Source of the DNA: Escherichia phage vB_VIPECOOM01
Reading direction: 5' to 3' (one strand)
DNA length: 64,000 nt
Sequence record: OQ721909
Positions within the stretch are counted from its first letter, which is position 1. Every line of letters begins with the position of its first letter. This document shows, piece by piece, positions 15,459 to 63,862 of the stretch. The notes under the pieces are model-generated. The model was given only the letters and a program-made list of their open reading frames with translations, had not been told where the DNA came from and did not search any database. Made by a program: the position numbers and the translations under genes.

Positions 15459-15466
15459 TATTTATA
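15459..15466 (-). promoter_or_regulatory. late promoter TATAAATA for soc
   Basis: Exact TATAAATA about 30 nt upstream of the soc ATG. Confidence 0.6.
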
Positions 15467-16100: not shown

Positions 16101-16301
16101 ATGGTGCAAAAATTAATGGCACTTGTTAATGCCATCAAAGGTAATAAAAAACGTATAGCTTTTACTATTTCTGCTATGATAGGAATTTTACTTTGGAATT
16201 TTGTTTTATCGCCAGTTGCTATTGCTCATGGCGTTAGTATTCCAGTAATTACTCTTGATACATTCGTAGATTTAGCATTTGCTTTAGTTGGGTTAATTTA
16301 A
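16101..16301 (+). CDS. small two-helix membrane protein (plus strand)
   Basis: 66 aa, hydrophobic; AGGAGG SD 4 nt before ATG; fills the 56/61 gap where T4 carries segF; 3' end converges on gene 61. Confidence 0.45.
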   Translation: MVQKLMALVNAIKGNKKRIAFTISAMIGILLWNFVLSPVAIAHGVSIPVITLDTFVDLAFALVGLI

Positions 16302-17326
16302 ATCTTAGCATATTTAGATAGCCGCATTTTAGCCATCAACCCTTGGGCAATATTATTTTTCATATATTCCATAATTTGTTCAGGGGTTGCACCTTCCTTT
16401 CTAATCATATCATTAACATCTTTTGATTTCCAGGGAGATTTGTCCCAAAACATAACCCTTTCTCCTGCATCAACTAATTTAGTCATTCGTTTAATAGTGT
16501 CAGGGTGACGAGGTTCATTATCTAAAACCCATACACGTCTATCTTTAAATGGAACAATTTCTAGGTCTAATTGGCCACCCGTAATAGCTATACCATTTTC
16601 AATAAAAAGTGAATCTATAGGTCCTTCTAGAACATATACATCACCATCTTTAACCCGTTCGACACCATAGATTTTTGTTGCCTCAGGATAAGCTTTGATG
16701 GTGATATATTTTTGAGGAGCATCTTTCTTTAATGCACGTCCTTGAAAAGACTCAGCTTTTCCATTAGCATTATAAATTGGAATAACAAGACGAGGCTCAG
16801 GTATTTCCTTTTTATATGTTCCTGGTGCTATACTATTAACTAATTTAGGCCATTCGGTTGTAAACCAAAGATATTTCCATTTATCCTTTGGAATACAGCG
16901 AGCTTTTACATATTTTATAATTGGATGGTCTTCCGTCAGTTTATCTAATCTAATACATGACGGAAGAGATTTAATTATTTTCTTCTCAGGTTGTTTAGGA
17001 AGTTCTTTAGGTTTTTCTACTGGACGACTTTTACCTTTTTCTTTTCTTATTTCAAAGATATACTCACGATATAAATCAGGTTCAAACTCCTTTAAATATA
17101 TTCCGATTGGTGCATGATAGTTACAGTTATAACAATGAATATTTCCTTCATTATTATCACCATAATACCATCCACGGGCTTTATTTTGGTCGGTTTTTGA
17201 ATCTCCACAAACAGGGCATCTAAACCGCAATTTAAAAGTTGAACTATTATTTACTTGTGTGAATTTAGGTAAATGAGCCAATGCACGGTATGCAAACTCA
17301 TTATCAATCCAAGGTATTGATGACAT
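16298..17326 (-). CDS. 61: DNA primase gp61
   Basis: 342 aa as T4 gp61; zinc ribbon CPVCGDS...CYNC; ATG checked. Confidence 0.9.
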   Translation of the reverse strand: MSSIPWIDNEFAYRALAHLPKFTQVNNSSTFKLRFRCPVCGDSKTDQNKARGWYYGDNNEGNIHCYNCNYHAPIGIYLKEFEPDLYREYIFEIRKEKGKSRPVEKPKELPKQPEKKIIKSLPSCIRLDKLTEDHPIIKYVKARCIPKDKWKYLWFTTEWPKLVNSIAPGTYKKEIPEPRLVIPIYNANGKAESFQGRALKKDAPQKYITIKAYPEATKIYGVERVKDGDVYVLEGPIDSLFIENGIAITGGQLDLEIVPFKDRRVWVLDNEPRHPDTIKRMTKLVDAGERVMFWDKSPWKSKDVNDMIRKEGATPEQIMEYMKNNIAQGLMAKMRLSKYAKI

Positions 17327-17328
17327 TT

Positions 17329-17493
17329 TTACTCTTCTTTTTCTTTAGATTCCTCTTTTTTCTTTTTAGGAATCTGTTCAGGGCCTTTATTTACTACAGC
17401 ACCTGATGTTGTTCCAGTAGAGATATTTTCAGGATTACCGCCTGAATCTCCAGCTACCATATCTTCTTTAATAAATTCTTTATATGTTTTCAT
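17329..17493 (-). CDS. candidate capsid-targeted internal peptide (54 aa), missing from the ORF track
   Basis: Hand translation MKTYKEFIKEDMVAGDSGGNPENISTGTTSGAVVNKGPEQIPKKKKEESKEKEE; N-terminus matches the CTS of ipII/ipIII in this window; GAGG SD; frame checked. Confidence 0.45.
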   Translation of the reverse strand: MKTYKEFIKEDMVAGDSGGNPENISTGTTSGAVVNKGPEQIPKKKKEESKEKEE

Positions 17494-17494
17494 A

Positions 17495-17851
17495 TTAACC
17501 TCTATTCATAAAAGCATTAAAAATTTGGTCATCAATCGATGGAATAGCAACCTTTTCTACATCATTTAACAAATCATTAATTTCGTCAGATAGCATAACG
17601 CATGTACCTTTATTTCCTGTAATTGTTACTGCGCAATTACGAACGTTTTCTTTATCAAATTTTAGGTTAATATTTTCGTAGTGAAAATCCTTTAATGCCG
17701 AATATATTTTTAAAATGAAATTGTCTTTTACTACAATAAACCCAACCTCACTATTAAAACGTGGTTCATGGAAACTGTAATAAACCTTTTCATCTATAAA
17801 ATCGTATGAAATTTTTTCCATTTTTAAATATGAAAATTCAGAACTATACAT
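17495..17851 (-). CDS. hypothetical protein (61.1 position)
   Basis: 118 aa; last 12 codons and stop are nucleotide-identical to the next ORF. Confidence 0.45.
   Translation of the reverse strand: MYSSEFSYLKMEKISYDFIDEKVYYSFHEPRFNSEVGFIVVKDNFILKIYSALKDFHYENINLKFDKENVRNCAVTITGNKGTCVMLSDEINDLLNDVEKVAIPSIDDQIFNAFMNRG
17500..17536. repeat. 37-nt direct repeat, copy 1
   Basis: ctctattcataaaagcattaaaaatttggtcatcaat, identical to 17858..17894. Confidence 0.8.
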
Positions 17852-17852
17852 A

Positions 17853-18479
17853 CTAATCTCTATTCATAAAAGCATTAAAAATTTGGTCATCAATAGAAAC
17901 ATTCACTTTAGACTGTTTTTCTGATGTCAATTCATATCCGCATATTACAATTTTGTGATCAATATCAAAATATGCAGAAGCAATATGATTAATGATGTTT
18001 TCAGTAAAGTCTAAATCAACATCAATATCTTTTTGACCACAACCTAAAGGATAAATAATGCGAGTAATTCGATTATCTTTAACAAAGATTCCACCGACAT
18101 ACTCAGTGTTACGTTTAAAGTCTACACGCCGACGAAATGAAAAATATTCAGGCTCTTTATGAGCTCGGCTCATAGGACACAACGAGTAACTAGAGTAAGA
18201 GATGTCAAATCCTACGCCTTCAATATGAGCCAAAGTATCATGATTAAACCAATTATAATCGTACGCCAAGTCCATTAGATTATAATATGTAAAAGGCACC
18301 GGATTAACATCATTAGTCACAAGCATGTAATTAGCAACTGCTATAATTTCGTTGTTTTTAACGAATACAAACCGTGATTGATGCGAATGACCTGGACCCG
18401 CGTTTTCACGATTAATGATATAACACTGGGCACCTTTATATTTGTATGTATCTTTGCACTTGTGCATTTGATAGAGCAT
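17853..18479 (-). CDS. hypothetical protein (61.2 position)
   Basis: 208 aa; shares C-terminal SIDDQIFNAFMNR with 17495..17851. Confidence 0.45.
   Translation of the reverse strand: MLYQMHKCKDTYKYKGAQCYIINRENAGPGHSHQSRFVFVKNNEIIAVANYMLVTNDVNPVPFTYYNLMDLAYDYNWFNHDTLAHIEGVGFDISYSSYSLCPMSRAHKEPEYFSFRRRVDFKRNTEYVGGIFVKDNRITRIIYPLGCGQKDIDVDLDFTENIINHIASAYFDIDHKIVICGYELTSEKQSKVNVSIDDQIFNAFMNRD
17858..17894. repeat. 37-nt direct repeat, copy 2
   Basis: Identical to 17500..17536; encodes the shared C-terminus of the 61.1/61.2 ORFs. Confidence 0.8.
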
Positions 18480-18772
18480 TATTCACCTACCACTTCAGCG
18501 ATGATATTTTTATTATTAAAGTTTTTATCGCAATATAGAACATAATTATACTGCATTACACCACCAGACTTAAGCTGTTTTTGCACTTCAGCTTTCATTT
18601 CAGGACGATCACGCTCAACGATATTCATAATATCTGCTTCAATTTGAGTTTCAACTTCAGTCTGATCTGCAGTCATAGACCATTCACACAAGTCTTTATC
18701 ATAACCTGCCATAGCAGGCTGAGCAGCGCAAGAAGATAAAGCAAAAATTGCAGCAAAGATAAATTTTTTCAT
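18479..18772 (-). CDS. sp: periplasmic Spackle-like protein
   Basis: 97 aa with signal peptide MKKFIFAAIFALSSCAAQPAMA; length and position match T4 sp. Confidence 0.55.
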   Translation of the reverse strand: MKKFIFAAIFALSSCAAQPAMAGYDKDLCEWSMTADQTEVETQIEADIMNIVERDRPEMKAEVQKQLKSGGVMQYNYVLYCDKNFNNKNIIAEVVGE

Positions 18773-18832: not shown

Positions 18833-19132
18833 TTATTTTAAAACTTCTGCATAATCACATGTTACAAACTGTTTCTCTAACTTGATGATTTTACGAAAGT
18901 ATCTTTTACATTGGCGAATCTGTCGCTTCGTAGGGCGCACAGCAAACTTAATAAATTCCACTCGACCAAATGGAGGACTTTCTTCTGCTGGAATATCTAA
19001 CACCAATTCCCACGTATCCGCAATAAGTGCCTTGAATTGAGTATTTTTCCTGACGTTATACGGAGTAGGTTTAAATAAAACAATGTGCATATTATCCTCG
19101 GCAATCAACTTCACATACTTTCTTATCATCAA
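18833..19132 (-). CDS. basic small protein (61.4 position), possible TifA-like RNA-binding anti-toxin factor
   Basis: 99 aa with basic C-terminus; directly downstream of dmd; assignment from position and memory. Confidence 0.35.
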   Translation of the reverse strand: MMIRKYVKLIAEDNMHIVLFKPTPYNVRKNTQFKALIADTWELVLDIPAEESPPFGRVEFIKFAVRPTKRQIRQCKRYFRKIIKLEKQFVTCDYAEVLK

Positions 19133-19274
19133 TGAAAGCTTTAACTAGTGCTTTATTAACTTCAGCATATTGAGTAGTAGCCCATTGAACGTCATCTTTC
19201 ATCATTGTGATTTCTTTAGTAAACATGCTTTCATTCTTAAACCACCCCATAAAAACTACCTTTACCAATTCCAT
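19092..19274 (-). CDS. dmd: Dmd, antitoxin against RnlA/LsoA
   Basis: 60 aa, length and position (between 61.x and 41) as T4 Dmd. Confidence 0.65.
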   Translation of the reverse strand: MELVKVVFMGWFKNESMFTKEITMMKDDVQWATTQYAEVNKALVKAFIDDKKVCEVDCRG

Positions 19275-19303: not shown

Positions 19304-19333
19304 ACTATACCATAGTCTTGTCAGCTTGTAAAC
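19304..19333 (-). promoter_or_regulatory. early promoter upstream of dmd
   Basis: GTTTAC, 18 nt, TATAGT between gene 41 stop and dmd start. Confidence 0.5.
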
Positions 19334-62872: not shown

Positions 62873-63175
62873 TTATTTACCTTTAATTACTTTAGCTGCT
62901 TCGATAGCCGCTTGCTGAAGGTCATCCATAGACATACCGAATTTAGAAGCAAAGTTATCAATTTTCTTTTCGACAGCATTCAAAGGCTTGGCCTGTTTAC
63001 CTTCATTAGCGCCAGGAAGAGCGAGAATACGCTCTTTGTCAATATAAAGGCTTACAAGTTTCTTACGGTCTTTATCGGACAAATCATGAAATGAATGGGC
63101 CTTTTTATTTATAGCGGCTTCTAATTTACCTGCACTCACTCGCGCTTCAGCAATAAATTCTTGATATGTTTTCAT
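62873..63175 (-). CDS. ipII: internal protein II
   Basis: 100 aa as T4 IPII; CTS MKTYQEFIAEA. Confidence 0.85.
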   Translation of the reverse strand: MKTYQEFIAEARVSAGKLEAAINKKAHSFHDLSDKDRKKLVSLYIDKERILALPGANEGKQAKPLNAVEKKIDNFASKFGMSMDDLQQAAIEAAKVIKGK

Positions 63176-63283: not shown

Positions 63284-63862
63284 TTAAGAATTACCACGAG
63301 CTGCATTAGCAACGGCGTAAGCGTACTGAACATTAGCGTCTTTAAACGTACCTTTAGAGGTATCTAGTTCTGCCTTAAAGCCGCCTTTAGTCATAACATC
63401 GGCAAATTCTTTACGGAAAGCCATTGCATCAAGGCTTCTCCATGACGATTTGTGCTTGGCGAATTCAAGACCAGCGTAGTTGACAGCCTTAGCTAATTTA
63501 TTATCAATAACCCATTTACCTGCTTTAGGCACAAATACCGGGCCTTTCTGTTTAGAGAATAGTTTTAAATTCCAGCGACGAAGGTCACCGTCAGCTTTAA
63601 CAAAAGCTGCGTCCAAGTTACTAGCAACAACATCTTGAATATGGCCAAATTTAAGCCCATCAACTTCAATATTTAGATCGGTACGCCAGCGAAGTCCTTC
63701 CCAAGCGAAAGCTTTAAAGTCAGAAGCCTTTGTAGCTAAATACCGTTCAATAGTAGCTGTTTTAGGGTCAAAGCCGTTTCCTCGATAAGTCCACTCATCT
63801 TTATTAATTCCTTTGGCCTTTTCCACAGAAGCTTCAGCGATAAATTCTTTATACGTTTTCAT
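63284..63862 (-). CDS. ipIII: internal protein III
   Basis: 192 aa vs 194 aa in T4; CTS MKTYKEFIAEA. Confidence 0.85.
   Translation of the reverse strand: MKTYKEFIAEASVEKAKGINKDEWTYRGNGFDPKTATIERYLATKASDFKAFAWEGLRWRTDLNIEVDGLKFGHIQDVVASNLDAAFVKADGDLRRWNLKLFSKQKGPVFVPKAGKWVIDNKLAKAVNYAGLEFAKHKSSWRSLDAMAFRKEFADVMTKGGFKAELDTSKGTFKDANVQYAYAVANAARGNS

Follow-up and report, generated by a model that had tools for sequence, protein, structure and literature searches.

What is a gene that opens like a packaged head protein doing immediately upstream of a phage primase gene? The question is raised by a 165-nucleotide (nt) minus-strand open reading frame (ORF) at 17329..17493 of a 64,000-nt stretch of Escherichia phage vB_VIPECOOM01 (sequence record OQ721909; hereafter the window), whose product, MKTYKEFIKEDMVAGDSGGNPENISTGTTSGAVVNKGPEQIPKKKKEESKEKEE, starts like the internal proteins (IPs) ipII and ipIII. 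The original prediction gave this translation exactly as we obtain it and took the ORF for an unannotated gene between genes 61 and 61.1. We find that this ORF is gene 61.1 of T4, a genuine small gene that is under selection and transcribed early. Read from its sequence, gp61.1 is a 10-residue leader of the capsid-targeting sequence (CTS) type, followed by a 28-residue paralogue of the N-terminus of the mature major capsid protein (gp23*) and a lysine run. The relationship to gp23 had been missed, and it alters the likely biology of the protein.

The features on which the argument rests, with the two internal protein genes used as comparators, are as follows.

17329..17493, minus strand: gene 61.1 coding sequence, 54 codons plus TAA, orthologue of T4 NP_049649
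17464..17493, minus strand: codons 1-10, leader MKTYKEFIKE, a CTS-type decapeptide ending in I-K-E, a cleavage motif of the gp21 type
17380..17463, minus strand: codons 11-38, DMVAGDSGGNPENISTGTTSGAVVNKGP, paralogue of the mature gp23* N-terminus, comprising the N-fist (66-91) and G92-P93
17332..17379, minus strand: codons 39-54, EQIPKKKKEESKEKEE, a conserved Lys/Arg run and then a lineage-specific acidic tail
17499..17502, minus strand: Shine-Dalgarno sequence GAGG, 5 nt 5' of the 61.1 ATG
16298..17326, minus strand: gene 61, DNA primase, its ATG 2 nt beyond the 61.1 stop
62873..63175, minus strand: ipII, CTS MKTYQEFIAE (phrog_7857, internal virion protein)
63284..63862, minus strand: ipIII, CTS MKTYKEFIAE (phrog_5341, internal virion protein)

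The ORF is gene 61.1

The source record annotates 17329..17493 as WFG78196.1, a member of phrog_1823, and the profile of that family matches the product over its full length (E 7e-34), so the ORF had been annotated after all. T4 gene 61.1 in NC_000866 likewise has 54 codons and adjoins gene 61 on its upstream side. Its translation (NP_049649; UniProt P39228) begins MKTFKEFIKEDMVAGD and is identical to the product here at 52 of 54 positions, this phage having Y4 for F4 and T26 for I26. In both phages 2 nt separate the 61.1 stop from the primase ATG, and gene order follows T4 (downstream of 61.2, sp, dmd and 41, upstream of 61) except that this phage has an added AdfA-like ORF between 61.2 and 61.1. 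It was this inserted ORF (17495..17851, 118 amino acids (aa)), absent from T4 and a truncated paralogue of AdfA/61.2, that the original prediction had called 61.1; it also knew of no such gene next to primase in T4, where 61.1 in fact lies. The check that it proposed in T2, T4 and T6 finds the ORF in all three, as well as in RB14 and ime09. The gene is not new: it is already annotated and near-universal in Straboviridae, with a product recorded without function in any family member. Pfam and NCBIfam scans of gp61.1 and of a longer form described below matched no family, and literature searches on gp61.1, the CTS sequence and "CTS-like" returned mentions of gp61.1 in table entries alone.

A leader of the capsid-targeting type

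The claim that the first ten residues are essentially the ipII and ipIII CTS is borne out. The leader is identical to the ipIII CTS at nine of ten positions and to that of ipII at eight. The pattern MKT[YFW]x[ED][FLIM] occurs three times in the six-frame translation of the window, at the starts of 61.1, ipII and ipIII. In 200 dinucleotide shuffles the mean was 0.015 matches (maximum 1), so the resemblance is far beyond chance. For incorporation into the head, residues 1-10 of IPIII are enough, and suppressor analysis assigned CTS positions 4 and 7 to targeting and 8 and 10 to processing (Mullaney and Black, as summarised in PMC9026906). At all four determinants gp61.1 has the IPIII residue (Y4, F7, I8 and E10), so that it carries suitable residues both for targeting (4 and 7) and for processing (an aliphatic residue at 8 and Glu at 10). 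These matches support assignment of the leader to the CTS type.

The leader was checked for two outcomes that would have spoken against a function, absence from relatives and an origin as a scar copied from the ipIII 5' end. Other genera keep it: in TH55 (Gaprivervirus) 61.1 begins MKTFKDFINE, in agreement with the leader type of four IP-like ORFs in the same genome (MKTFNEFFNE, MKTYQEFITE, MKTYQEFINE and MKTYQEFLAE). The RB49 gene begins MIGFKQFVEE (F4, F7, V8 and E10). Over 150 kb of RB49, and in asfd_1h over its entire genome, a search turned up no CTS-type ORF besides 61.1, so that of these three phages TH55 alone informs on co-variation of the leader with IP CTSs. At the DNA level the 30-nt leader is 83-87% identical to the starts of ipII and ipIII, and the similarity stops at the ATG. 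This confinement to 30 coding nt excludes a recent recombination scar, and the gene is moreover under purifying selection.

A similar arrangement is found in the proteins of the shell. We compared gp23 and gp24 of T4, RB49, TH55 and asfd_1h with the IP CTS, using a pattern with an aromatic or hydrophobic residue at P7 and P4, an aliphatic residue at P3 and Glu at P1. The segment of gp23 preceding its cleavage site shares this pattern (F59, F62, L63 and E65), and the 10-residue gp24 propeptide, MAKINELLRE, fits it as well. Judged by sequence, a single signal seems to recur in variant form in the IP CTS, in the gp61.1 leader and where the gp23 propeptide ends; the comparison suggests that the CTS is an imitation of the propeptide ends found in the shell proteins themselves. 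As a separate observation on the vertex protein, TH55 carries two gp24 paralogues in tandem at 164041-166593, with propeptides MAKINKLLRE and MQKINALIHE.

The body is a paralogue of the gp23 N-terminus

BLASTP aligned residues 2-38 of gp61.1 with residues 57-93 of gp23 (43% identity, E 2e-9), and the best sequence match in the PDB was T4 gp23 (E 0.0085), with D11 placed on A66. Profile comparison by hhalign extended the match to gp61.1 2-47 against gp23 57-102 (97.7% probability, E 1.4e-12; 97.6% for the long form), the alignment reaching MVRR at gp23 98-101; similarity is strong only as far as residue 93 and ends at about 102. With gp23 1-134 as a tblastn query, the 61.1 ORF was the second match in both the RB49 and the TH55 genomes. 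On these alignments residues 2-47 of gp61.1 are a paralogue of the gp23 cleavage site and N-fist.

The register of the alignment is informative. E10 of gp61.1 falls on gp23 E65 and D11 on the first residue of gp23*, across the E65|A66 site at which gp21 cuts off gp23 residues 1-65 (PMC7136217). That E10 is the Glu at which the prohead protease would cut, as had been proposed, agrees with this position and with the fit of I-K-E to the gp21 motif. Residues 11-36 align with the N-fist, gp23 66-91 (PMC7136217). In the prohead the N-terminal region of gp23 is inside and is thought to touch the core; the N-fist touches four subunits, and after expansion it latches neighbouring capsomers and, with the I-domain linkers, builds the Soc site. 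The residues invariant in the 61.1 family (G15, D16, G18, I24, G27, G31 and P38) match, in order, the invariant gp23 residues G70, D71, G73, I79, G82, G86 and P93.

Across four genomes, 13-16 of the 28 module residues were identical to gp23 in every genome pair, and the module showed no excess similarity to the N-fist of its own genome. The paralogy is therefore ancient and kept by shared constraint, not by gene conversion. The relationship to the capsid protein covers about 46 residues, including the cleavage Glu and nearly all of the invariant Gly, Asp, Ile and Pro positions, but gp61.1 has no HK97-fold body and no Pfam Gp23 match. Records that label it "major capsid protein" are thus wrong and need correction.

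Two other readings of the body were tried and rejected. GDSGG resembles a chymotrypsin-like serine protease signature, but 54 aa is too small for such an enzyme, no Pfam or NCBIfam family matched, and the motif corresponds to GDHGY in gp23. Mimicry in the Gol/Lit system was set aside as well, strong similarity covering gp23 57-93 only and the Gol region being taken to lie at about residues 94-122.

The tail beyond the module varies. Removing a single A from the A6 run within the KKKK codons yields the T6-type allele (62 aa; P0002) exactly; this frameshift (window 17332..17370) replaces the acidic tail with a basic one and makes 61.1 overlap the primase start. The A6 homopolymer is a slippage hotspot, and the tail is not conserved. 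Most relatives have basic mature peptides (pI 8.3-10.3). In two further copies of gp61.1, P0018 and P0027, we observed systematic Ser/Pro to Phe/Leu, Thr to Ile and Ala to Val changes; these suggest assemblies from C-to-T converted reads and are probably database artefacts.

Conservation and architectures across Straboviridae

Searches by tblastn with the gp61.1 peptide matched 1,431 phage records, against 1,451 for the gp23 N-terminus. About 1,400 Straboviridae records carry an intact 61.1, from phages of E. coli, Klebsiella, Acinetobacter, Aeromonas and Vibrio. Selection on the gene is purifying, with dN/dS (nonsynonymous to synonymous rate) of 0.10 against T4 and, against TH55, pN of 0.087 at a saturated pS of 0.785.

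The family takes two main forms. A short form of 50-60 aa is found in Tequatrovirus, Gaprivervirus, Krischvirus RB49, Biquartavirus asfd_1h and others. A long form of ~145-165 aa (phrog_2086, ~600 records), carried by Karamvirus CC31 (where it is annotated "61.1"), RB16, the Mosigvirus-type PECP20 and KVP40-type phages, adds a conserved N-terminal domain of ~100 aa. Because the long form occurs both within and beyond Tevenvirinae, and because the T4 module is nearer to the PECP20 long form than to the RB49 short form, the long form is probably ancestral, with the N-domain lost more than once.

Among 47 diverse family members, the residue just before the module (P1) was Glu in 47 of 47 and P3 was hydrophobic in ~95%. 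This [L/I/V/M/F]-x-E at fixed spacing is the sole feature kept on the 5' side of the module, sequence further upstream being variable, and it corresponds to the L/I-x-E cleavage motif of gp21 (PMC9026906). On the other side a Lys/Arg run always follows the module, with a variable tail beyond it. The long-form N-domain showed no homology to the gp23 N-terminus (propeptide) by hhalign.

Larger arrangements also occur. On a metagenomic T4-like contig (4001-4720), a 239-aa variant is the sole gene between helicase 41 and primase, running from the N-domain through an LFE|DMVAGD module and KKKRKK to a second CTS-like segment, MNEVMTFCQFQTDIKE, and an extra domain of ~90 aa. The second CTS-like segment and an I-K-E bracket the module, and proteins P0030, P0048 and P0045 are similar. 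The sequence of the 239-aa variant suggests either a polyprotein carrying gp21 sites or fusion to an IP-like gene. In BFVD the long-form model also matched parts of much larger viral proteins, namely A0A411BBR2 (672 aa), A0A1B1IT15 (913 aa) and a pair of ~390 aa, whose further domains could hint at function.

A candidate substrate of the prohead protease

How might a CTS-type leader, a capsid latch and a protease motif work together? We propose that gp61.1 enters the prohead and is cut there by gp21 to yield a 44-aa peptide, the reading that we favour, although tentatively and at a little short of an even chance. In this scheme the contacts that serve the IP CTS, and likewise the homologous stretch of gp23 before its cleavage site (F59, F62, L63 and E65), would also bring gp61.1 into the scaffolding core of the assembling prohead. 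Cleavage by gp21 after Glu10, as in gp23 after Glu65, would release a 44-residue peptide starting DMVAGD, and DMVAGDSGGNPENISIGTTSGAVVNK with a free Asp11 N-terminus would be expected. In the ~150-aa relatives the ~100-aa N-terminal domain would replace the decapeptide as propeptide. The freed peptide might then serve as an accessory in core or shell assembly, be retained on DNA through its Lys run, or merely be expelled. Since gp21 acts only inside proheads, and its cleavage motif is the sole feature kept upstream of the module, this motif is the strongest argument for processing in the head.

Comparison with known head proteins helps to place such a substrate. Like ipII and ipIII, gp61.1 has early RNA and a closely matching decapeptide; it differs from IPI, IPII and IPIII in being far smaller, with a gp23-paralogous body, and in lying in the 41-61 cluster, not the IP locus. 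It also lacks the hypervariable, patchy body of the IP type, being conserved in ~1,400 records. Like gp67 ("precursor to internal peptides") and gp22, it is a small protein with L/I-x-E sites from which a short peptide is predicted; unlike them it lies outside the head-gene cluster and has neither a late promoter nor an acidic core-like composition. By sequence, then, gp61.1 falls within the definition of a CTS protein, departs from the profile of a hypervariable basic IP and is not a capsid protein. We regard it as a candidate addition to the prohead proteins processed by gp21. T4 internal proteins are dispensable. In CRISPRi-ART data 61.1, with no function listed, was classed "Not Fit" (-0.84, p 0.93), as was primase (PMC11879866), a result compatible with a non-essential accessory role.

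Several observations weigh against this proposal. Small cleavage products normally leave the prohead, which makes retention or injection of the peptide doubtful. The T4-type mature peptide is mildly acidic (pI 5.0, net charge -2), differing from internal proteins, which are described as basic (PMC9026906). In the AlphaFold2 (AF2) model the N-fist-like module is disordered, the model of the long-form N-domain gave no fold match, and the long forms lack the P7/P4 aromatic pattern, so that their mode of targeting is not accounted for. Gene 61.1 belongs to an early operon of anti-toxin genes, away from the head-gene and IP loci, and no late promoter, TATAAATA, occurs between 15467 and 57019, the nearest lying at 15459 (soc) and 57020. 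The protein went undetected in a T4 infection time-course proteome (PMC9697503), and a T4 head mass-spectrometry paper, which lists nine processed head proteins, does not mention 61.1 in its main text or in the supplements searched. We found no published detection of its packaging or cleavage, both of which are predictions here.

Timing counts less heavily than it might. T4 61.1 RNA is classed early, and the RNAs of ipII and ipIII are early as well, with protein appearing late (PMC9697503), so that early transcription is compatible with a role in the head. Within the ipII coding sequence, ~60 nt from its start, lies an exact match to the late-promoter consensus TATAAATA (63106..63113, minus strand), which may serve denV downstream.

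The locus and alternative roles

The following features lie upstream of 61.1.

17495..17851, minus strand: 118-aa extra ORF, a truncated AdfA-like paralogue (PF23813, E 4e-8 over residues 22-118; phrog_4122)
17853..18479, minus strand: gene 61.2, AdfA, anti-DarT factor (PF23813, E 4e-133)
18479..18772, minus strand: sp
18833..19090, minus strand: 61.4/tifA as annotated in the source record; a longer TTG-started ORF reaches 19132
19092..19274, minus strand: dmd
19304..19332, minus strand: strongest match to a sigma-70-like promoter, TTTACA-17-TATAGT with TG, upstream of dmd (by consensus alone)

The promoter match at 19304..19332 would be the early promoter of a dmd-61.4-sp-61.2-61.1-61 unit; an early promoter of dmd-tifA is described in PMC9391042. 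Within this unit 61.1 starts 1 nt past the stop of the 118-aa ORF. That ORF resembles the C-terminal half of AdfA, and its own C-terminus, SIDDQIFNAFMNRG, differs from the one in 61.2/AdfA at the final position alone. The ORF may be a duplicate in decay, or else another factor of the anti-DarT type. Two differences were seen on the far side of 61.1: the segment 15183..17326 lacks dam and segF, which in T4 lie between soc, 56 and 61, and a 66-aa hydrophobic ORF (16101..16301, plus strand; phrog_2024) converges on gene 61 with a 4-nt 3' overlap, an arrangement also found in PECP20.

The alternative that survives best, although we consider it unlikely, is that gp61.1 acts in the cytoplasm as a mimic of the gp23 N-terminus. 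Early gp61.1 would occupy a factor that binds the cleavage-site and N-fist segment of nascent gp23, which could be a host sensor or abortive-infection system recognising capsid protein, or a chaperone or protease, and gp61.1 would be a further counter-defence or regulatory member of the region that holds dmd, tifA and adfA. Srikant et al. named this region the "anti-TA island" and its remaining genes "attractive anti-toxin candidates" (PMC9391042; TA, toxin-antitoxin). Early 61.1 RNA, an operon shared with Dmd, TifA and AdfA, dispensability on the lab host, the robust homology to the gp23 segment and the predicted disorder of the module, common for decoys, are all consistent with it. Like Dmd, TifA (61.4) and AdfA (61.2), gp61.1 is small and dispensable on lab hosts, but it has no sequence relationship to them, is conserved much more broadly and looks like a structural protein. 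Unlike host-specific anti-defence genes it is near-universal in Straboviridae of very different hosts, which points to a conserved phage partner and not to a host-specific defence. It is also hard to see what use a decoy would have for the CTS residues or for the invariant Glu of the gp21 type, and the mimicry misses the Gol region as placed here.

A further reading, raised as a possibility in the original prediction, is an effector kept in the head as a 44-aa product and injected with the DNA, which would act against defences in the next host as IPI* does. An injected anti-defence role is speculative, and we judge it quite improbable. The CTS determinants are present, the conserved Lys run could keep the peptide bound to DNA, the mature peptides of most relatives are basic as given above, and a CTS can bring foreign cargo into heads and from there into cells (PMC9026906). 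Yet this role needs every packaging step and then retention and injection in addition. The gene is conserved, unlike the hypervariable IPs (PMC9026906), its body is a capsid-protein paralogue with nothing of an inhibitor-like fold, the T4-type peptide is acidic, and the head mass-spectrometry paper, in the main text and the supplements searched, has no mention of it.

Harder still to credit is a link to replication, with gp61.1 as a DNA or primosome accessory or as a leader ORF translationally coupled to primase. Position is the attraction here: 61.1 keeps its place between the genes for helicase 41 and primase 61 in T4, KVP40-like and metagenomic phages alike, the order 61.1-then-primase holds in PECP20, the KVP40-like VH1_2019 and metagenomic contigs, and the 2-nt junction of this phage and T4 would suit coupling, as the Lys run would suit an accessory. 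The tight junction is not kept, however, the gap being 39 nt in PECP20 and 81 nt in VH1_2019, with two small ORFs between 61.1 and primase in RB49. Selection acts on the N-fist-like amino-acid sequence and not merely on the 3' end, the gp23 homology has no rationale in replication, and 61.1 knockdown had no effect, although primase too scored "Not Fit". Last, a non-functional remnant, whether a scar copying the 5' end of an ip gene or a decaying fragment of a gene 23 duplication, would account for the leader's DNA identity and the gp23-like body but is hardly believable for an ORF intact in ~1,400 genomes, with dN/dS of 0.10 (pN 0.087 at saturated pS), a good ribosome-binding site, DNA similarity that stops at the ATG and a gp23 likeness that shows no own-genome excess and hence no recent conversion.

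Implications for T4 head assembly

We found no description of a CTS-type leader combined with an N-fist paralogue in the literature searched. T4 head assembly is textbook material, and the lists of prohead-protease substrates and CTS proteins are regarded as essentially complete. If gp61.1 is instead a decoy, the anti-toxin island would hold a mimic of the capsid protein. The wider possibility, which we put forward as doubtful but worth stating, is that T4, like nearly all Straboviridae, uses gp61.1 as an unrecognised component of head assembly, a copy of the gp23 cleavage site and N-fist that stands by itself, is brought to the prohead core by its CTS (in other genera by the ~100-aa propeptide), is excised by gp21 and acts in trans. 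The freed peptide could then fill N-fist or scaffold-contact sites, modulate maturation or ride the DNA into the next host. A corollary would be that the IP CTS owes its function to imitation of the last residues of the gp23 propeptide (F59, F62, L63 and E65). A conserved 54-aa protein that joins CTS determinants to the N-terminal latch of the capsid would, if this is right, extend the T4 list.

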